Notes under the pieces: generated by a model
Told to the model about the DNA's origin: nothing
Databases searched by the model: none
What the model saw: only the letters and a program-made list of their open reading frames with translations
Shown: positions 1 to 8,720 of the stretch, piece after piece
Layout of the letters: each line of letters starts with the position of its first letter
Position numbering within the stretch: the first letter of the stretch is position 1
NCBI GenBank assembly: GCA_964650355.1
Contig: CAZYTL010000001.1
Location: 85,552-149,551 of the forward strand
Source of the DNA: an uncultured Gammaproteobacteria bacterium
GTDB lineage: Bacteria > Patescibacteriota > Microgenomatia > CAYXHB01 > CAZYTL01
Length of the DNA stretch: 64,000 nucleotides
Direction of reading: 5' to 3'
Program-made: the position numbers and the translations under genes

Positions 1-797
1 CTTTTTTCCATCGCTTGCTTGAAGGCGGCAATTAAATTAGGCAGATTCTTGCGCGGTTGTAGAGTTCCCAAGTATAAAATGTAGTCACCCGGAATCTGAT
101 ATTTTGCTTTTACCCGATTAATTTCCTCATCCGGTTGAGGGAAAAAGTAGTGCTGATGATCAATCCCCATATGGGCCACCGTCACTTGCTGGTCAAATTT
201 ATTGTAATGCTTCAAAATGTCATTCTTAGTGTGCTGAGAAATGGCGATCACATGATTGGCGCGATTCACGGACCGCTTGGTCCAGGATTTCAGTTGAGCC
301 AGATCCTGTTTCTTAAAGTATTCGGGGAAGTCAAAATAGGCCGTGTCTAAAATCATGGTTACCAAAGGCACAGGACAGATTAAGGGCGCGTAATGTCCGG
401 GAGAAAAAAATATATCTAACTTTGGCCTTTCAGACAACAACCGTAACGGTAACCTTAAAATAGTCCACATTCTTTGCATGGGAATCACCTTATATTGCCA
501 ATTATCAGTTGCTTTAGGTAGATCTTCCAAAGGGGTATTTTTAAGATAAACTATCCATTTGTGAGCGACTTCAACCCGGTCAGGATTTTCTTCGTCGGTT
601 AAAGTCTTTAACCCGTGCAGCAGCTTAAAAGCTACCATGTTTGAACCCACGCGTTGTTTCACATTGGCCTCATTACCGTCAATCCCGATTACTAATGGTT
701 GCCTTCCCTCCTCATGCAATTTTTCATCAGCATGAATCTCATGCAAGGTTTTCTGGTCGAGTTGTTTAACGGCGGGTTGGGGTTTATCGTCTGCCAT
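1..797 (-). CDS. Glycosyltransferase family 4 (GT-B fold), C-terminally truncated by window edge; ATG at 797
   Basis: Translation from 797 downward (MADDKPQPAVKQL...GIDGNEANV...LYLGTLQPRKNL) has no stop before position 1. The GIDGNEAN and GTxxPRKN motifs are typical of GT4. Its start abuts the Nudix stop at 800. Confidence 0.6.
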   Translation of the reverse strand, partial: MADDKPQPAVKQLDQKTLHEIHADEKLHEEGRQPLVIGIDGNEANVKQRVGSNMVAFKLLHGLKTLTDEENPDRVEVAHKWIVYLKNTPLEDLPKATDNWQYKVIPMQRMWTILRLPLRLLSERPKLDIFFSPGHYAPLICPVPLVTMILDTAYFDFPEYFKKQDLAQLKSWTKRSVNRANHVIAISQHTKNDILKHYNKFDQQVTVAHMGIDHQHYFFPQPDEEINRVKAKYQIPGDYILYLGTLQPRKNLPNLIAAFKQAMEK

Positions 798-799
798 CG

Positions 800-1267
800 T
801 TATAATTTACTTAACATTTTAATGCCTTGCTTAGCATAAAATTGGTCATCTTCACGAATATTGTATTCTGAATCTGATAATTCATCAAAAGTAAACCATT
901 TATACTCCTTATGTTCTTGGGTATTTAATTTAACTTTATCAGATTCCGGTCTAGCGTAATATACCATCTTAACATCCCGATGAGCTTCATTAACCTTAGA
1001 AAGGTTCATATAGACCGGAGTATATAGCGATTCAACTATGTCTTTATCTAAATTGAACCTGGGTTTATTACCATAGATCTTAACTTGTAATCCACACTCT
1101 TCTTTTATTTCTTTAAACAATGCTTGTTCAGGATTTTCGTTTAGTTCTATATGACCGCCTATCGGCAACCACCTGTTAAACAAATTATGAAAAACGAAGA
1201 GGACTTTATCCTTGTAAACGAGGTAAATTGCCACGGTAAAATCAATTAAATTGCGGCTATGAGGCAT
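800..1267 (-). CDS. NUDIX hydrolase
   Basis: Nudix box GGHIELNENPEQALFKEIKEECGL (GX5EX7REUXEEXGU). Confidence 0.8.
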   Translation of the reverse strand: MPHSRNLIDFTVAIYLVYKDKVLFVFHNLFNRWLPIGGHIELNENPEQALFKEIKEECGLQVKIYGNKPRFNLDKDIVESLYTPVYMNLSKVNEAHRDVKMVYYARPESDKVKLNTQEHKEYKWFTFDELSDSEYNIREDDQFYAKQGIKMLSKL

Positions 1268-1299
1268 ATTTAAACCAATTTTTATTTTTTCAGAACTAA

Positions 1300-1665
1300 T
1301 TAATAAAGTGGATAAACGTACAGATCAACCGGGTAAAACCACCTTAAAATTACAAAAATTTTAGCCATAGTGTAGAACATTGCCCATAAATTTATTAAAT
1401 AAATAAGCCATTTTACCAAAATAGATTTATTGCGGACTTTGATTGAAGAATAAACCAGATAAGGAAATCCTATCAGAATCCACAAAAGCAATAGTAACCG
1501 AAGTATATTGGTTAAAAATGTGAACAATCTTAGGAAAGCAAACTGTTCAAAGTCAGCCCGAATAACATACTTAAGTACCGCAGGTAACACCATAAAAGTA
1601 GAAATAAACACCGAAAGATAAATGACAATGATCAGAAAGTCAGATTTTTTGAACTTAAGACTCAT
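1300..1665 (-). CDS. Small polytopic membrane protein (121 aa), tandem paralog of 1740..2105
   Basis: Hydrophobic with about 4 TM segments. Same length and position as the neighbouring copy; lies next to the duplicated GT4 3' end relic. Confidence 0.45.
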   Translation of the reverse strand: MSLKFKKSDFLIIVIYLSVFISTFMVLPAVLKYVIRADFEQFAFLRLFTFLTNILRLLLLLWILIGFPYLVYSSIKVRNKSILVKWLIYLINLWAMFYTMAKIFVILRWFYPVDLYVYPLY

Positions 1666-1712
1666 AAATATTTAGAGTTTCTATGCGACTTTTTCCCAGC
1701 TAAATTTATAAA
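1663..1712. repeat. Relic copy of GT4 3' end (copy A of a ~45 bp duplication; copy B = 2094..2140)
   Basis: tcataaatatttagagtttc...tttttcccagctaaattt occurs at both sites with an 8 bp divergent core. Copy A reads KFSWEKVA* out of frame; copy B encodes the real C-terminus ...KFSWEKTARETLNIYEQD. Confidence 0.7.
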
Positions 1713-1739
1713 TGAACTTTAACCAAATGCAAGCCCTAA

Positions 1740-2105
1740 TTAATAACTGAAATCACCGAGACCAAAAGACGCTTGAACGAATAAAGCAACCACAAAAGCC
1801 GCAGCTGTAAATATGTAACCGATAAATACAAAGAGTAAATTTGATGCCATCATATTTACCGGGCGCTTTTTGAGCCAGTTAACGAGTAGGATCACCAAAC
1901 TTGTTAACCCATAAAGGCCATTAACTAAGACTACCAAGGCAAGCAGTATTTGTGCCACGTTCCAAGCAGAGAACAATAGTTGAGTAATTATTTCGCTTTG
2001 AGTTACATGTAAGATCAACAGTAATAAAACAACTACGGTATAAATTGTAGAAGCTCCGGTTGTCAGCCATAATATTTTATAACGATTAATTTTAATCTTG
2101 TTCAT
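1740..2105 (-). CDS. Small polytopic membrane protein (121 aa)
   Basis: Hydrophobic 4-TM ORF whose ATG overlaps the last codons of the GT4 gene 2092..3222. Confidence 0.45.
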   Translation of the reverse strand: MNKIKINRYKILWLTTGASTIYTVVVLLLLILHVTQSEIITQLLFSAWNVAQILLALVVLVNGLYGLTSLVILLVNWLKKRPVNMMASNLLFVFIGYIFTAAAFVVALFVQASFGLGDFSY

Positions 2106-3222
2106 AAATATTTAGAGTTTCCCTGGCCGTTTTTTCCCAGCTAAATTTCTTCAACTGCTCAAATCCTCTTTTAATTAATCTGTTTCTGTCCGCCGGTTTT
2201 AAGTTTAACATCTTTTGGATACCCTCACGAATACTATCGGTGGAGTAGGGGTCAACATAAATAGCCGCTTTACCTGCCACCTCAGGCATACTGGAAATTC
2301 TGGATGTGAGCACTGGTATTCCGCAGGCAAAAGCTTCTAAAATTGAAATTCCAAACCCCTCGTATAAAGATGGGTACAGGAAGCCGCTGGATCCGCAGTA
2401 AAGGCGGGGAAGGTCTTCGTCTGGTACATAACCTATCAGTTGCACATTGTCTGTTTTAACGAGGCTCTCACCCCATCCTACTTTGCCGGCAATGACTAGG
2501 TTAGTTTTCCCAAGAGGACCCCTTCGGGGCAGTTTTGAGTTTTGAAGATCAGAAAAAACTTTTAGTACGCTAGCGAGATTTTTCCTGGGTTCTCGAGTCC
2601 CCACCATCAATAAGTAGTTACCCTCAATTCCATATTTCTGTTTTACTTCCTTAACTTTGAATTTTGAACCTTGAACTTTGAATTTATCATCCACCGCTTC
2701 ATAAATTACCGTGCTCAGCTCTTCCGGATAGTGCAATAATTCAATCAAATCATCTTTAGTGGATTTTGATACCGCAACCACCTGCAGTTTCTTTTCTTTA
2801 GCTCTTTTCAAACGTTTGATCATCGTTTCTTTATAGGGATATTGCTGCAAATCCGGCCGTTTTAAAAAGAATAAATCATGAATAGTAAGAACTGTTTTCG
2901 CCTTCGTAGGAGCCAAACTCCAGTCCGGACTGTGATAAACATCAATCGGGCCGAGTAGTTTTTCCAGGCTTAAAATATGCCAATCGTTCCAGAGGACCAT
3001 TTGCATTTTAGGAGACAAAGGGAAAATTTTCAGCTGAAAATTTTCCCCTAAATTACTCTGTTGAAAAAACTCTTCCACTGCCTTTCTTTGCCTCAAAGTC
3101 CCGGCAAATAGCACATATTCATTCTGTCGATCAATCTTAGCCAACGCCCTCACCAAATTTTTGGTATACACCGACACGCCTGTACCGTAAACCACTGAAG
3201 AGATGTCAATCGCTATTCTCAT
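2092..3222 (-). CDS. Glycosyltransferase family 4
   Basis: GTREPRKNL motif, followed by EGFGISILEAFACGIPV (the E-X7-E motif of retaining GT4 enzymes). Confidence 0.85.
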   Translation of the reverse strand: MRIAIDISSVVYGTGVSVYTKNLVRALAKIDRQNEYVLFAGTLRQRKAVEEFFQQSNLGENFQLKIFPLSPKMQMVLWNDWHILSLEKLLGPIDVYHSPDWSLAPTKAKTVLTIHDLFFLKRPDLQQYPYKETMIKRLKRAKEKKLQVVAVSKSTKDDLIELLHYPEELSTVIYEAVDDKFKVQGSKFKVKEVKQKYGIEGNYLLMVGTREPRKNLASVLKVFSDLQNSKLPRRGPLGKTNLVIAGKVGWGESLVKTDNVQLIGYVPDEDLPRLYCGSSGFLYPSLYEGFGISILEAFACGIPVLTSRISSMPEVAGKAAIYVDPYSTDSIREGIQKMLNLKPADRNRLIKRGFEQLKKFSWEKTARETLNIYEQD

Positions 3223-3262
3223 GCAATTATTTTACCTTAATTTTACTTCTCACATTTTAGTT

Positions 3263-4744
3263 CTATCCTGTTTTTTGATACACAAACACAAATCCTACCC
3301 CTCTAAAGTTCAGAGTATCAGTTAATTCATATCCATGATTGACCAGCCAGTCCGGGATTTTTCTTTCTGGGTCGCTCAGATCCGACAGATACTCAAAGTG
3401 ATAGATCGTGTTTGCGCCTTTGAGTTGATGGTCCATGATTAAATTGGAGTCGTTATCAAATACTAAATGGGGGACTAAACCTAAAGCATGAACCCAGGGA
3501 ACAGTCACGAATTGACTTGCATACCAGCTATAGGGAGCAAAAGGTTCGGGAAATGCAAAAGTTACCATAGATCCAGGATTTTGGGCTACTTTTTCCTCCA
3601 CCGTTTTCACTGCCGTGCGCCAATCTTCCCTCTGAAAATTCGGATTGGCATAATACAGGTACGACCCTAACAAAGACATAATTACGACTCCGCTGGTCAG
3701 CACAGTCTTCACCCGGGCATGTTTGACTTGTTCAATGCCAATCGCCAGCAATAAATACATGGCCGGCAGGGTGAATATCAATCTCCACGGGCCATTCACC
3801 GGCACCCAAAAGGAAATTAACCAGGCAGCTACAATGGGCACAACTAACCAATACCAGAGAAGGCTGACTTTTTTTGAATTAATGCGCACCGTTTTGAACA
3901 ACAAAGGAACCACAAACAAGCCACTGACTAACACCAACCCTGCGTACAACCACTTGTTGCTGAATGTAATCCTGCCCAACACGAACTTAGCATAAGTTAA
4001 AGGAAAGGCTTTCCAGGCTCCCGGACTGCTTAAAGTTCTCCATCCGGGCCAGATAGAAGGCAACTTTACCCCTGATGAAAATTGAGTGAGAAATTGGGGA
4101 ACCCAAAAACTAAACCCCAAGAGCGAAACAAGTAAACTATTGAGCCATGGTCTGAAACTGCTTTTTTCAACCCGCCAAAGATATACAATTTCTACCACCA
4201 GCATCAAAGGCAACAAGTAAAAAGTATAAAAACAGGCGATCAGCACCAGGGTATGCCAGAACCAGCGTTTAGTCAGCAAACAATAAATCAGCAAACTTGC
4301 CAATAACGCGGCCAGACTATACATGCGCAACTCTTGAGAGTAATAAATGTGATAGGGAGCAATCGCCAATAAAAAAGCTGCCAAAACCCCTACAGATTTA
4401 CCCTGAGGAAACACATATTTTCCCTTCTGCTTTACAGAACCCAGTAAAAAAATGACCCCCACGTTAGCTACCCCCAGCATCGCCGGCAACAATCTTAACC
4501 ACCATTCGCCACTGCCCAAAACCATGGCAAAATGCACCAGATAATAAAACAACGGCGGTTGAAAATCAGTTTGTAACTGCCATTGAGCACTAAAGGGTCG
4601 GGCGCTGGCCATGGCCTGGGCAGCCTCGTCCAGCCAAAAAGATTGATCCAAATGAAATAACCGCATTAGCAGAGCCAACAACAGTATCGACAACAGGGTA
4701 TTAGAAATCCGGATTTTTGAGAAGGAAAAATTGCGCAGCTTCAT
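3263..4744 (-). CDS. GT-C fold membrane glycosyltransferase (ArnT/PMT, GT39/GT83-like)
   Basis: More than 10 TM helices. First extracytoplasmic loop carries FWLDEAAQ, the DE motif of ArnT/PMT family enzymes. Confidence 0.7.
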   Translation of the reverse strand: MKLRNFSFSKIRISNTLLSILLLALLMRLFHLDQSFWLDEAAQAMASARPFSAQWQLQTDFQPPLFYYLVHFAMVLGSGEWWLRLLPAMLGVANVGVIFLLGSVKQKGKYVFPQGKSVGVLAAFLLAIAPYHIYYSQELRMYSLAALLASLLIYCLLTKRWFWHTLVLIACFYTFYLLPLMLVVEIVYLWRVEKSSFRPWLNSLLVSLLGFSFWVPQFLTQFSSGVKLPSIWPGWRTLSSPGAWKAFPLTYAKFVLGRITFSNKWLYAGLVLVSGLFVVPLLFKTVRINSKKVSLLWYWLVVPIVAAWLISFWVPVNGPWRLIFTLPAMYLLLAIGIEQVKHARVKTVLTSGVVIMSLLGSYLYYANPNFQREDWRTAVKTVEEKVAQNPGSMVTFAFPEPFAPYSWYASQFVTVPWVHALGLVPHLVFDNDSNLIMDHQLKGANTIYHFEYLSDLSDPERKIPDWLVNHGYELTDTLNFRGVGFVFVYQKTG

Positions 4745-4827
4745 TGATGATGAGATGATGATACACCTTTAAGTCACTCCTTGCTGTCTGAGTGGAATTA
4801 GAGTTTTGAACCCGTCAGCTTTGATGA

Positions 4828-5682
4828 CTACTTCGCCTTATTTCCCAGCATAATCATTTCCATGATACCTAAACTGATCCCTAAATCAAAAATAAGCTTA
4901 AAAATAAAAAATAAGGGTTCCCTGTATTTTACCGATTTATAAAGCCCGATGACTAAACTGACCGGGAATGAGGCCCTTGCCAAAGCAACCAACTTACCCA
5001 CAAATTTGAGTTTATATTCTCTTTTGCCAACCCATTTCGCTTGCTGAAAGACGCCCGACAAGCGAGCCGGATTATGGTGATAAAATACTGCTCCGGGAGC
5101 GTGAATAGGTTTATAACCCAACTTTTTAACCAAAGTCCAAGTGTCGTTATAGCCCACATGGTCATACCCATTTACTCGCTGAAACTCTGACTTCAGGATG
5201 GCCCGAAAGTCTTCTCCCTTGTCAGGATAATTCAATGGCAATCTGCGCTTAGGTGCCAAATTTAGATTCCAATTCCAGCACCTGGCCCAGACATTGTCCC
5301 AGTTGGCCACAAACTCTTCCTTGCTAAAAGTCCCCTTGACAGCCTTCTGTTTGATTGGCTGAATCAAATGCTTAATAAAATCCTCGTCAAACTCCATGTC
5401 AGCGTCAACCAACACCAGTATTTCGCCTCTGGCCATCTTAGCGCCCTGATTCCTGGCAATCGCCGGACCCTGGTGAGCCTGATGCAACAACTTTACTTCA
5501 GGAAACTGCTTAATTCTCTTAACAGAAGCGTCTTTTGAGCCGTCATCCACCACAATGATTTCCATCTCATCATTGGTTTCCAGCTTTTGTTTTTGCAAAG
5601 ATGCCAAACATCTGCCGATGTACTTAGCTTCGTTATAAGTAGGGATGATCACCGAGATGAGCATGGATGCCAAGAAGAACAA
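4828..5682 (-). CDS. GT2 glycosyltransferase, polyprenyl-phosphate sugar synthase-like (DPM1/ArnC-like) with C-terminal TM
   Basis: ISVIIPTYNEAKYI, VVDDGSKD and VDADMEFDE (the DXD region), with a hydrophobic C-terminus. Confidence 0.8.
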   Translation of the reverse strand: MFFLASMLISVIIPTYNEAKYIGRCLASLQKQKLETNDEMEIIVVDDGSKDASVKRIKQFPEVKLLHQAHQGPAIARNQGAKMARGEILVLVDADMEFDEDFIKHLIQPIKQKAVKGTFSKEEFVANWDNVWARCWNWNLNLAPKRRLPLNYPDKGEDFRAILKSEFQRVNGYDHVGYNDTWTLVKKLGYKPIHAPGAVFYHHNPARLSGVFQQAKWVGKREYKLKFVGKLVALARASFPVSLVIGLYKSVKYREPLFFIFKLIFDLGISLGIMEMIMLGNKAK

Positions 5683-5804
5683 TAAACTTTCCTCATGAGT
5701 TTACCCCAACCCGGAAGGTAAGTAAATCAAGAGTCACACGGGGATTATTAGTTTTTTCAAACCGATAATTATGATATCACCAGGTTGGGTGGTAAAATAG
5801 CATC

Positions 5805-6497
5805 GTGGATCCCGATGATGACGATTACGATATTTTCAATCCTCAAATTGGAGGGGGCTCTATAATACCAAAGCATATGCCAAGCGAAGAAGAAAAACTA
5901 TATCACGAACTAATAGGTAAATATCAGGGGACCATAGGAGAAACAGGAACAACCACAGAAAAAGTGATGTGGGAATCTGTCAATGCAGTTTTGCAACAGT
6001 TGGTGGACAAAGGGCATAGCCATTACTCCAGATTCATGATAGAGCCAACCAAATTGGGGCCAAGTGATTTTGTCAACTTTGGTTCCTTTCGCTCACAACT
6101 CATGAGTGCTTTACAAAGAATGTCACAAGATTTCGATTTGGCAGATCCCAGTTATTTAATCTATGAACATATGCCTAAATCTAACGCACAGATAAGTAAT
6201 CAAGCAATCTCTTCACCCATTCAGAGCAATAACCAGAGTCAAACTCAACAGCAAAGCCAAGAAGTTGAATTGTCTATCGATCAGAGAATCTCGTTAATAG
6301 AACAAGAATTAGAAGAGAAACTTACTGAAGAACAGCTAACAGAAATAAAACCGACACTGGAGGAATTTAAAGCAGAACCGACTAAATGGAGTAAAGCTTC
6401 CAAACTAATCAAGGCTGTATTGGGACTCAGCAAAGATGTAGCTGTAGGTGTAATTTCAAATATTGTAGCTACTCAAATAGGTTTCCCCCAAGTTTAA
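5805..6497 (+). CDS. Hypothetical protein, acidic N-terminus (MDPDDDDYD), Q/S-rich linker and coiled-coil C-terminus
   Basis: ORF with coding-like composition and no recognisable catalytic motif. Confidence 0.45.
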   Translation: MDPDDDDYDIFNPQIGGGSIIPKHMPSEEEKLYHELIGKYQGTIGETGTTTEKVMWESVNAVLQQLVDKGHSHYSRFMIEPTKLGPSDFVNFGSFRSQLMSALQRMSQDFDLADPSYLIYEHMPKSNAQISNQAISSPIQSNNQSQTQQQSQEVELSIDQRISLIEQELEEKLTEEQLTEIKPTLEEFKAEPTKWSKASKLIKAVLGLSKDVAVGVISNIVATQIGFPQV

Positions 6498-6516
6498 GAT
6501 AGCTGTTTTTCTCTCC

Positions 6517-6612
6517 CTAATCATCGTCATCTTGATTCAACCAGGGCGGTAGTGTAGTTGTGGTCTTAGAAGAAGCTACTCTCGGTGGGGTAGAGGTTGA
6601 GCTAGATGTCAT
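6517..6612 (-). CDS. Micro-ORF, 31 aa (MTSSSTSTPPRVASSKTTTTLPPWLNQDDDD), ATGA-coupled to upstream gene
   Basis: Its ATG (6612-6610) overlaps the TGA stop (6611-6609) of the 6609..7238 gene. Ser/Thr-rich with a DDDD tail. Not in the ORF track because it is under 60 aa. Confidence 0.2.
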   Translation of the reverse strand: MTSSSTSTPPRVASSKTTTTLPPWLNQDDDD

Positions 6613-7238
6613 AGTTTAAGATCTTTAACCATACTTGGGTGAGGTAGTGAAGCACCCGATACTGGAGTTGAATATAGTTTTGCGATATCAGGATCTACTT
6701 TAAATTTTAGATTACCCTTAAATTGATTATTGTATCTGTTTACCATCAGCTCCATCAATTTTGTATCTGTTTTTAGAACCTTCTTAAGTTTTTCCACAGC
6801 CAATTTGAAAGCTTCGGCAAATTGGTCTGCGTCTAAAACTAAATGATTGTTTTCAACAGTGAAGGGATCTGCTTTAGTTCGACTAATTCCAGCTGCCTTT
6901 GCAAAGTAATTGTGAGCCAACCCGTTGCGGAAAATGTTTACAAAATTCCTTCTATGTGGTTTTAACTTTTCTTTGAAATCATCTGGAAAATAGTCATCAA
7001 TAAAACCCATTATGCTTGCTTGGGCATATCCTTTCTTGGGTAAGGACTTTCCTGAAAAAGTTAGTTGACCTAAGAATTCAACACATGCAAACGTATAGAG
7101 TGCAATGGGAAAATTGCAGTTACCAGCAGCTCCAGAGCGATGAGGAATGCTTGTTAGTCTCTCAAGATCGGTTAGCATCCAGCCATCAACGACTTCGGCT
7201 ATAAAATAATCTAAAATTACGGTCTTATTTTTGTCCAT
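6609..7238 (-). CDS. Hypothetical protein with HEPN-like Rx4HxY motif (possible Abi/HEPN RNase)
   Basis: IFRNGLAHNYF matches the HEPN R-X4-H signature. No other assignable domain. Confidence 0.45.
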   Translation of the reverse strand: MDKNKTVILDYFIAEVVDGWMLTDLERLTSIPHRSGAAGNCNFPIALYTFACVEFLGQLTFSGKSLPKKGYAQASIMGFIDDYFPDDFKEKLKPHRRNFVNIFRNGLAHNYFAKAAGISRTKADPFTVENNHLVLDADQFAEAFKLAVEKLKKVLKTDTKLMELMVNRYNNQFKGNLKFKVDPDIAKLYSTPVSGASLPHPSMVKDLKL

Positions 7239-7318
7239 ACAATTTTATCTTTGGTTCCAATTATACATTCCAGCCACATATTCTTAAAGTTTCTAGGCTC
7301 AAGTAGTAAAATAAGAGA

Positions 7319-8053
7319 ATGAAAGAGGAAGCTATCAAATTACTAGCCAAAACTGACGAAACTCTACTGCTCGGTAAAAAGGGATTAGCGAGAGTTACTG
7401 AAACAAATGAGGTTGAAAAAGAACTAAAGACTTTTTTGAATGCCAACTTAGATTTTGACTCAGAACTTGGCAGAGAATATGAGAAGTGGAGCAAAACCAC
7501 TATTTGGAAGACTATCCCAGGGGATGGTTTTGCAAATCAAAGCTATATATCTCCTATAATCATGTTGAGAGATTTCCTTACAAGGTTTTTGGACGTGAGC
7601 GATATTCAAGCACCGCCCACACAACAATATGTTAAAACTGGAGAGGTCTACACAGGAAGAAAAGTTTTGCGGGACATTTTAAGCCGAGCAAAAAATAAGA
7701 TTGACGTTCAAGATAACTATCTGGACCAAGAAATATTTGCCATCCTCCAACCATATTTTGAAAATAATGCAAATATCGAAGTTAGGCTCTTAACAAATCA
7801 AGCAAACAACGCTTTTAAATCCGACTTTGATGTTTTTAGTAAGCAGTATGGGAGAGCAAAAGCAAAGTACAACAATCAAGCCCACATCAGATTAATAATT
7901 TTAGATTCTAATGAGGTATTTAGTATTGGTCATTCCCTCAAAGACGTTGGAAAAAAAGCTGATGCAGTTTCAAAGATCGAGGATGATGATGCGAGGAAAA
8001 AGGCAATAGACGATTTTGAAAGTTGGTGGAAAAACGGGACTCAAATAAATTAA
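7319..8053 (+). CDS. Hypothetical protein (244 aa); weak PLD-like H-x-R-x4-D...G-H-S segment near C-terminus
   Basis: AHIRLIILDSNEVFSIGHS loosely resembles an HKD motif with R in place of K. Divergent from the HEPN-like gene. Confidence 0.45.
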   Translation: MKEEAIKLLAKTDETLLLGKKGLARVTETNEVEKELKTFLNANLDFDSELGREYEKWSKTTIWKTIPGDGFANQSYISPIIMLRDFLTRFLDVSDIQAPPTQQYVKTGEVYTGRKVLRDILSRAKNKIDVQDNYLDQEIFAILQPYFENNANIEVRLLTNQANNAFKSDFDVFSKQYGRAKAKYNNQAHIRLIILDSNEVFSIGHSLKDVGKKADAVSKIEDDDARKKAIDDFESWWKNGTQIN

Positions 8054-8209
8054 TTTTCGAAAGCGAAGTCTGACTAAAAGCCATTAGGGGTTCGAACCTC
8101 GTTACCGGTATTTCTCATTTCCAGGCTAACTCCTAAAAAACAAAAAACCTGGCTCGTATTTACCTCACTGAAGCTCTGGCGAAGCGGGTCAGATTATTTA
8201 TTTTCAGGC

Positions 8210-8467
8210 CTATTTGTCTAGTTTCTTCTGGGAGTACCCTTTTAGTTTTCTTCTTCCTGCCCCACTTTTCCACCAATTCTCTCGTTTTCTTGCTTCTTTT
8301 AATGATTCGAACTCTTCAATAAACAACACCCTAAAGGGAATTCTATGTTTTGTAGACTTAACTTGACCAGAATTATGTTGTTTAAGTCGCCTCGTGAAGT
8401 CGCTGGTTGAATCCACATATGTTCTGCCATCAGGCAAACTTTGCAGAATATACGTAGTAGCAGGCAT
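8210..8467 (-). CDS. GIY-YIG nuclease family protein (YhbQ/UPF0213-like, 85 aa)
   Basis: YILQSLPDGRTYVDSTSDFTRRLKQHN (GIY...YVG core) and the conserved R...E...K tail. Immediately downstream of tRNA-Gly. Confidence 0.75.
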   Translation of the reverse strand: MPATTYILQSLPDGRTYVDSTSDFTRRLKQHNSGQVKSTKHRIPFRVLFIEEFESLKEARKRENWWKSGAGRRKLKGYSQKKLDK

Positions 8468-8537
8468 TTTTATAATACAAGGGAGCGGGCCCCGCCCTCT
8501 GGGCGAGGTGCCTCGCTCAAGCGCCTTTGGCGACTTG

Positions 8538-8608
8538 AGCGGGATACGGGGGTCGAACCCGTCTTTCTACCTTGGGAAGGTAGCGTTGAGCCGCTCAACT
8601 AATCCCGC
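8538..8608 (-). tRNA. tRNA-Gly(CCC)
   Basis: Reverse complement GCGGGATTAGTTGAGCGGCTCAACGCTACCTTCCCAAGGTAGAAAGACGGGTTCGACCCCCGTATCCCGCT folds as a cloverleaf. Acceptor GCGGGAT/ATCCCGC, anticodon stem CTACC/GGTAG with loop TTCCCAA, T-arm ACGGG-TTCGACC-CCCGT. No encoded CCA. Confidence 0.75.
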
Positions 8609-8720
8609 GAAGTTTTGCCCATCTCCACTTTTTCTGGGCAATACAAACCAACGAGCTCTGTCCAGCAGGTGACATAGCTGACGGTTTAATTAATTAAAGA
8701 GTTCTACGAACGAGATCTGG

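Follow-up and report, generated by a model that had tools for sequence, protein, structure and literature searches.

A probable tRNA-side defence hotspot in an uncultured small-genome bacterium, with a HEPN-like and a PLD-fold protein as candidate effectors

What kind of genes occupy the short interval beside a tRNA-Gly gene in an uncultured bacterium, and what might they do there? The question is raised by a stretch of 64,000 nucleotides (contig CAZYTL010000001.1 of assembly GCA_964650355.1, positions 85,552 to 149,551, forward strand; hereafter the window), in which three open reading frames (ORFs), orfA, orfB and orfC, lie between a glycosyltransferase gene and tRNA-Gly(CCC). An initial annotation had described them as orphan genes of an accessory segment, one with a HEPN RNase motif and another with a PLD-like motif. 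In our reading, which we consider reasonably probable, the interval from orfA to the 3' end of tRNA-Gly(CCC) serves an uncultured, probably Patescibacteria/CPR-like lineage as a defence-gene hotspot, and here holds two independent candidate anti-phage effectors, orfB and orfC, together with a small GIY-YIG gene. The features concerned are as follows:

4828-5682, minus strand: GT2 gene, which closes the left side
5805-6497, plus strand: orfA, 230 amino acids, GTG start at 5805 (ORF call)
6517-6615, minus strand: remnant of the orfB tail, out of frame (three-frame translation and alignment of orfB homologues)
6609-7238, minus strand: orfB, 209 amino acids (ORF call)
7239-7318: intergenic region between the divergent orfB and orfC, 80 bp
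7319-8053, plus strand: orfC, 244 amino acids (ORF call)
8089-8098: palindrome GGTTCGAACC, chance-level
8210-8467, minus strand: GIY-YIG gene, small and stand-alone, 85 amino acids (Pfam GIY-YIG, E 1.5e-12)
8537-8608, minus strand: tRNA-Gly(CCC) (ARAGORN and Rfam), its 3' end being the right border of the variable slot

The three ORFs, the GIY-YIG gene, tRNA-Gly and the GT2 gene all lie where the initial annotation had placed them, and its motif strings are accurate: FRNGLAHNY corresponds to residues 103-111 of orfB, and HIRLIILD and GHS to residues 189-196 and 204-206 of orfC. The divergent arrangement of orfB and orfC was also borne out, and the 80 bp between them contain a putative sigma-70-like site for orfB (TTAAGA-16-TATAAT, 7287..7260, minus strand), recognised by consensus match only. 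All three genes have close homologues (13 for orfA, 52 for orfB and 20 for orfC), nearly all of them unnamed metagenomic proteins, and are thus no orphans.

Orthologous loci were obtained from metagenomic contigs that carry orfA homologues (contigs are given L numbers below); a PolX scan of GTDB genomes and a membrane-protein scan of metagenomes returned relatives at 27-38% only. L029, L032, L033 and L034 keep the order of the window: orfA on the plus strand, followed on the minus strand by tRNA-Gly(CCC), which is orthologous in all of them, LysM and tRNA-Asp(GTC). PolX (plus strand) comes next after this frame in L029 and L032. The slot, taken as the interval from the orfA stop codon to the tRNA-Gly 3' end, varies in size from 0 to 2.7 kb across loci, and its contents change from one locus to the next:

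L033: 30 bp, an empty site
L032: gene for a 241-residue DUF4145 protein, minus strand (Pfam E 4e-11; PADLOC PD-T7-4 E 4e-11)
L029: gene for a 167-residue protein, SIR2 gene (PADLOC Aga_SIR2, E 2e-15) and gene for a 294-residue protein
L034: gene for a 257-residue protein and a GIY-YIG gene
Window: orfB, orfC and the GIY-YIG gene

The slot fits the pattern expected of defence hotspots: its flanks are conserved, its cargo varies, and one relative has an empty site (L033, compared with L032, L029, L034 and the window). The other flank of orfA varies too: a type IIG/ISP restriction-modification (R-M) enzyme (E 3e-281) lies there in L033, an RmrA-like peptidase and DUF4411 in L034, and NUDIX in L032; the type IIG/ISP R-M enzyme is also found downstream of orfA in L030. 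Thus, the proposed accessory segment holds for the orfB/orfC slot beside tRNA-Gly, which varies among relatives and whose alternative cargo is of defence type (SIR2, PD-T7-4-like HEPN, type IIG/ISP R-M, RmrA-like). It does not hold for orfA, the only one of the three genes for which the orthologous locus is conserved core genome: orfA is kept in synteny and is the left frame gene of the slot, not its cargo. The integrase and attachment-site (att) direct repeats that would identify a genomic island were not found at the slot. A tRNA 3' end borders related genes elsewhere as well: the orfC homologue in L001 again ends at a tRNA 3' end (tRNA-His), beyond which come a GIY-YIG gene and a tRNA array, and tRNA 3' ends can therefore be said to recur as a neighbourhood.

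The first of the two cargo genes, orfB, belongs to a large family. A profile search over 1.84 billion cluster representatives recovered 566 at E <= 1e-3, of which 167 reach E <= 1e-10, and no cluster among these remote relatives carries a name. The motif of the window protein, R104-N-G-L-A-H109, has the family form R-[HN]-G-L-A-H. As counted in an alignment of 115 diverse members, R104 is kept throughout (115/115) and H109 in 114/115, while position 105 is H, N or D in 109 (H 56, N 47, D 6). An acidic residue at position 54 (E/D54) is found in 103 of the 115, and D24 and G57 are nearly invariant. The Ex3[KR] pattern is not preserved, the window copy having Q58. HEPN domains have been defined (Anantharaman et al. 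2013, PMC3710099) as four-helix up-down bundles with an insert separating helices 2 and 3, in which an Rx4-6H motif, with a polar residue (N, D or H) directly after the R, closes helix 3, and helix 2 carries a second conserved acidic residue. orfB carries the sequence part of this signature: Rx4H with a polar residue after R, and an acidic residue in helix 2, E54 falling within helix 42-60 of the window protein. An AlphaFold2 (AF2) model (predicted local distance difference test score (pLDDT) 84.8, predicted template modelling score (pTM) 0.80) places helices at 3-30, 42-60, 71-83 (the insert) and 86-108; then come a hairpin (126-136) and two more helices (137-157 and 159-179). In this model, helix 86-108 closes with the motif, which continues into a loop, and the inserted helix precedes the motif helix; the helix order agrees with the HEPN four-helix layout with insert, as an order of secondary structure elements and not as a three-dimensional superposition. 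The signature suggests that orfB most probably works like a HEPN RNase.

Close homologues of orfB also have a GNCNFP loop and a tail, rich in Ser, Thr and Pro, that closes with TTT(L/M)PP; most homologues keep this tail (…TTTTLPPWLN…). The window copy has a remnant of it just past the orfB stop codon, in another frame (6517-6615, minus strand), that reads TSSSTSTPPRVASSKTTTTLPPWLNQDDDD and then a stop. It follows that the window copy has been frameshifted or truncated, or else misassembled. The tail is likewise missing from P0027, a homologue of 208 residues.

The second cargo gene, orfC, has 20 full-length homologues at 42-70% identity. The residues invariant in the 20-member alignment are Q131, D132, N133, Y134, D136, H189, R191, D196, G204, S206, K208, G211, K213 and D215. 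They include the motifs Q131-D-N-Y-x-D136 and H189-x-R191-x4-D196-x7-G204-x-S206-x-K208. In the AF2 model (pLDDT 85.6), four N-terminal helices (residues 1-93) are joined by a linker of low confidence to an alpha/beta domain (113-244). Foldseek comparison of this model with the PDB gave 24 matches at E <= 1e-3, all of the PLD fold; those at probability 1.00 are TrmBL2/TrmB (E 5e-6), Zucchini (1e-4), vaccinia F13, FAM83 DUF1669, NucT, SauUSI and PLD3. PDB sequence and profile searches gave no match. The PLD-like reading of the 244-residue protein thus holds at the level of the fold, and it is strengthened by the PADLOC search that the initial annotation had proposed, in which residues 99-233 match PDC-S05 at E 2e-26 (profile positions 169-300 of 306). 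In the comparison with Pfam, PLDc_2 aligns with orfC over the whole domain (positions 2-132 of 132) at a sub-threshold score, and orfB has no HEPN match.

A tblastn search found the orfC domain shared with PDC-S05 in 55 plasmid records, nearly all from Bacteroides and related Bacteroidales, in genes annotated as 'RhuM family' or 'ORF6N domain' (a match among the RhuM-annotated Bacteroides plasmid proteins has E 5e-11). BLASTP of orfC against a RhuM-annotated Bacteroides fragilis protein (E 2e-18) aligns IDVQDNYLD with LLIDNYVD, and AHIRLIILD...IGHSLKDVGKK with SHDRFLIVD...IGASLKDLGKK. The shared C-terminal module is separate from the RhuM/ORF6N N-terminal part, because the Pfam RhuM model covers only residues 61-124 of the B. 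fragilis protein. Pfam Virulence_RhuM has no match in orfC, and no full-length PDC-S05 match that includes the RhuM/ORF6N N-domain was found. orfC is therefore not a strict PDC-S05 member, since its N-domain differs, but by sequence comparison it shares the presumed effector module. A PDC-S05 representative expressed in E. coli reduced plating of T7 and T5 about 1000-fold and of T4 about 10-fold in one study (bioRxiv 10.1101/2024.09.26.614923). The B. fragilis gene itself, on L018 (plasmid CP103159.1), lies between a Fic family gene and helicase and exonuclease-domain genes, beside a recombinase; this neighbourhood (1888-7333) agrees with a reported RhuM-Fic/DOC defence context (PMC3710099). 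The alignment and the model together assign orfC to the PLD fold and show its HKD motif to be of an HxR form, which PDC-S05 has as well.

Several results weigh against the reading of orfB and orfC as a HEPN RNase and a PLD-type enzyme with roles in defence. Neither orfB nor any of 115 diverse relatives matched a HEPN family in Pfam, NCBIfam or PADLOC; sequence and profile searches of the PDB with orfB were empty or spurious; its best Foldseek match has E 0.26, with nothing significant; and hhalign of its profile against one DUF4145 protein gave a probability of 0.1%. The only compact, low root mean square deviation (rmsd) superpositions of orfB are with the Thermus HEPN proteins 1wwp and 1wty (rmsd 5-6 Å; template modelling (TM) score 0.42-0.49 on the target), but these Foldseek matches have E 3-5 and a probability of about 0.1. 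A Foldseek search of viral structures gave no match. As the homology test failed, we call orfB HEPN-like only: the published signature fits, as the initial annotation had proposed, while no profile or structure match of significance places it in the superfamily. The window copy has also lost the conserved tail near codon 205 and may be decaying. As for orfC, its PLDc_2 match has E 0.0018 and 18.6 bits against a cut-off of 27 bits, its match to the PDC-S05 profile extends over only 43% of that profile, and the structures closest to it in fold are non-catalytic TrmB-type regulators. It also departs from the canonical motif, HxK(x)4D(x)6G(S/T)xN: H189 and D196 are present, but the lysine is replaced by the invariant R191, the spacing is 7 and GxSxK stands for GSxN, so that the canonical lysine and asparagine are both absent. 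Finally, the location of the two genes would count as circumstantial evidence of defence.

The fold matches raise the alternative that orfC is a TrmB-like transcription regulator, whose N-domain binds DNA, whose PLD-like domain binds a ligand and which controls its divergent neighbour (orfB here, nuclease operons elsewhere). The top Foldseek matches of orfC, to TrmBL2/TrmB (E 5e-6 to 5e-4), extend over about 220 columns, and in four of five distinct contexts 59-90 bp separate orfC from a divergent operon, on the minus strand, of variable nuclease-type genes. On the other hand, the catalytic-type H, R, D, G, S and K of orfC are invariant and common to PDC-S05-type proteins; the sugar-binding domains of TrmB proteins are not known to carry such a motif. 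No helix-turn-helix or other DNA-binding family was detected in residues 1-93, the whole-chain rmsd between orfC and TrmBL2 is 12.8-18.3 Å, and orfC is co-directional with its neighbours in L009 and L010. In addition, PDC-S05 alone is reported to be phage-protective, in the study cited above. We regard a regulatory role for orfC as unlikely.

Improbable to a similar degree is that orfB and orfC have no role in defence, being either lineage-specific housekeeping or regulatory genes (for example, a HEPN-like protein in RNA processing) or decaying remnants in a recombination-prone region beside a tRNA. The frameshifted tail of orfB and its lack of a PADLOC match would fit such an explanation, as would the lack of an integrase or clear att repeats and the little direct sign of mobility: scans found neither family on viral contigs, and tblastn of plasmid and phage records with orfB gave no match. 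However, recognised defence genes occupy the same slot in relatives, orfC is homologous to a module of the tested defence candidate PDC-S05, both families are patchy and occur in changing nuclease-rich neighbourhoods, and the strict conservation of the motif residues argues for function.

If the two genes are defence effectors, do they act together? Both families recur on L008 (74% and 66% identity) within one divergent cluster, where genes for proteins of 193 and 168 residues separate them. Elsewhere they occur apart. orfC is found without orfB beside SNase, Mrr-like and DUF2726 genes in L005-L007, beside a set of genes for a 200-residue, a 353-residue and a NucC-like PD-(D/E)xK protein in L001-L004, and beside DUF8168_C in L009 and L010; its homologues also adjoin HicB and serine recombinase genes. 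orfB is found without orfC in L011 and L012. Because the families occur apart, orfB and orfC are probably independent modules that often share islands and act as single-gene effectors. The family sizes differ as well (52 close homologues and 566 representatives for orfB, as against 20 for orfC), and divergent transcription is unusual for toxin-antitoxin pairs, which counts against a two-gene system. That the two genes form one mutually dependent system, whether a toxin with its partner or a sensor with its effector, is the least probable of the alternatives considered, despite their adjacent and divergent position in the window, their joint presence on L008, where two other genes come between them, and the reported co-occurrence of HEPN-type with RhuM-like genes in R-M loci (PMC3710099).

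The preferred reading, of two independent effectors in a hotspot, would imply the following mechanisms. To judge from its motif, orfB is most likely a metal-independent HEPN-type RNase, which would dimerise as other HEPN proteins do and so bring the R104/H109 motifs together; once activated, it would cut RNA by means of H109 and R104, and growth of the infected cell would stop. Control of orfB may involve the tail. orfC, judged by its modelled fold, is most likely a PLD-fold phosphodiesterase or nuclease, and would be a homodimer like single-domain PLD nucleases. It would hydrolyse phosphodiester bonds through a phospho-histidine on H189, the nucleophile, with R191 standing in for the canonical lysine. 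Targeting or sensing, and with it the specificity for a target or trigger, would fall to its helical N-domain, where PDC-S05 has one of the ORF6N/RhuM type.

Some of the small unannotated genes beside orfB and orfC homologues recur in different loci (L001 3480-5941, L008 2271-3362, L011 5361-7323). The 200-residue protein of L001 is 82% identical to the 193-residue protein of L008, and the N-terminal part of the 353-residue protein of L001 is 62% identical to a 208-residue protein beside orfB in L011. These recurring neighbours point to a shared pool of shuffled small genes, which may be further unrecognised defence modules. A DUF6602 protein among them matches NucC and Cas-associated PD-(D/E)xK profiles at E 4e-24.

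The frame gene orfA has homologues over its full 230 residues, at 61-82% identity, and the GTG start at 5805 is therefore supported. Its N-terminus is acidic and its C-terminus hydrophobic; it also has a Q/S-rich linker and a predicted coiled coil, and searches of curated libraries gave no significant family match. Weak PADLOC matches to AbiTi (E 0.004) and a type I S subunit (E 0.007) were treated as spurious; they fall on the coiled-coil/low-complexity half. orfA is more conserved than its syntenic neighbours: L029 (orfA 8001-8690) shares 81% identity with the window in orfA, as against 47% in PolX and 35% in LysM, and the corresponding values for L032 are 61%, 56% and 43%. This higher conservation, amid a variable region, is a sign of unusual constraint or of recent transfer.

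GIY-YIG genes of 85-112 codons stand directly 3' of a tRNA gene and in the same orientation in four loci: the window, L001 (6909-7166), L030 (14220-14558) and L034 (7577-7846). The site is without one in L029, L032 and L033. The adjoining tRNAs are Gly-CCC, Arg-TCT or Gly-TCC, and the L001 copy sits between tRNA-Arg and tRNA-His within the tRNA array. These stand-alone genes behave like a mobile or tRNA-linked element.

Signs of recombination at the locus are few. No recombinase was found between 4.7 and 9.8 kb of the window, and neither an integrase, a transposase nor convincing att direct repeats were found at the slot. The sole candidate repeat, a 28-nt segment at 4789-4816 between the membrane-protein gene and the GT2 gene, lies beyond the conserved GT2 gene and matches the 3' end of tRNA-Gly(CCC) at 20/28 positions in direct orientation, a score reached by 1 of 300 shuffles of positions 1-8500. 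It could be a decayed tRNA or att remnant. It may also be due to chance, since the GT2 and membrane-protein genes adjoin in distant relatives. An island that ends at this repeat is doubtful, given that adjacency and the conservation of orfA.

The palindrome GGTTCGAACC, which the initial annotation had likened to a T-loop and placed at 8075-8084, is in fact 14 bp away, at 8089-8098. ARAGORN and Rfam have no match there, there is no T-arm pairing, and perfect 10-bp palindromes are found at chance frequency (75 in the window, about 62 being expected at 4^-5 per position); we therefore discarded it as a tRNA or att remnant. GC content was likewise uninformative as an island signal, orfA being equally low in GC and other parts of the window lower still. 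To the left of the slot, a GT4 gene, the gene for a 493-residue multi-pass membrane protein and the GT2 gene form a glycosylation cluster (2092-5682), the gene order of which is kept in distant metagenomic relatives (L019-L028, 27-56% identity).

The logic of the hotspot, HEPN toxins and PLD nucleases are all of already known kinds. What is new here is a compact slot with an identifiable empty site in an under-studied lineage, an orfB family that, as far as the profile searches reach, is large and absent from Pfam, NCBIfam and PADLOC, and, by alignment and model, an HxR PLD module joined to a new N-domain in orfC. Uncultured small-genome bacteria are thought to be poor in recognised defence systems, and a compact tRNA-side hotspot with an empty site offers a simple route to harvesting their defence genes. 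The two candidate effectors found by this route are a HEPN-like family that is missing from every curated library and an HxR variant of the PLD active site that orfC has in common with the little-studied PDC-S05/RhuM-like proteins. We tentatively propose, as a possibility that falls well short of the hotspot reading itself, that orfB represents a large and as yet undescribed branch of the HEPN-like RNases (566 or more clusters at 50% identity, from metagenomes only, with D24, the GNCNFP loop, G57, R-[HN]-G-L-A-H and the Thr/Pro-rich tail as its signature) that serve as single-gene abortive-infection effectors in small-genome uncultured bacteria; orfC would then show the HxR PLD-like module of PDC-S05 to be a portable effector with exchangeable N-domains.

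How do the slot and its cargo compare with known systems? tRNA-adjacent defence hotspots framed by core genes have reportedly been described for Pseudomonas and E. coli. Like these, the slot has conserved flanks, interchangeable defence-rich cargo and an empty site in one relative; unlike these, it shows no visible integrase, transposase or clear direct repeats, its host belongs to an uncultured small-genome group, and it is only 0-2.7 kb long. orfB resembles HEPN RNases (DUF4145/PD-T7-4, Abi2 and the MNT-associated HEPN 1wwp) in its Rx4H motif with N or H after R, in the predicted placing of this motif at a helix end that runs into a loop, in the helix-2 acidic residue, in the predicted insert before the motif helix, and in being small and stand-alone. 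It differs from the HEPN families in having no significant profile or structure similarity to any of them, and has conserved features of its own: D24, G57, the GNCNFP loop, a beta-hairpin with two further helices beyond the motif, and the Thr/Pro-rich tail. In L032 the slot of orfB is taken by a bona fide DUF4145 HEPN gene, likewise on the minus strand; the parallel is suggestive but is no evidence for homology.

orfC shares the fold of HKD/PLD nucleases such as Nuc/NucT, Zucchini, BfiI and the PLD domain of SauUSI (Foldseek probability 1.00, with a TM score of 0.5 on the target in the case of Zucchini, NucT and FAM83). It also has their conserved His and Asp, and a dimer is implied because there is one HKD-like half-site per chain. 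It differs from them in the replacement of Lys by Arg, in a D-to-G spacing of 7 and not 6, in GxSxK for G(S/T)xN, in its score below the Pfam PLDc_2 threshold, and in that its activity is a prediction from sequence. The C-terminal ~135 residues of orfC are homologous to PDC-S05 by both the hidden Markov model and BLASTP matches, IxDNYxD and HxRx4D...GxSLKDxGKK are found in both, and both are single genes in defence or mobile contexts; where PDC-S05 has an ORF6N/RhuM-type N-domain, however, orfC has a lineage-specific four-helix domain instead.

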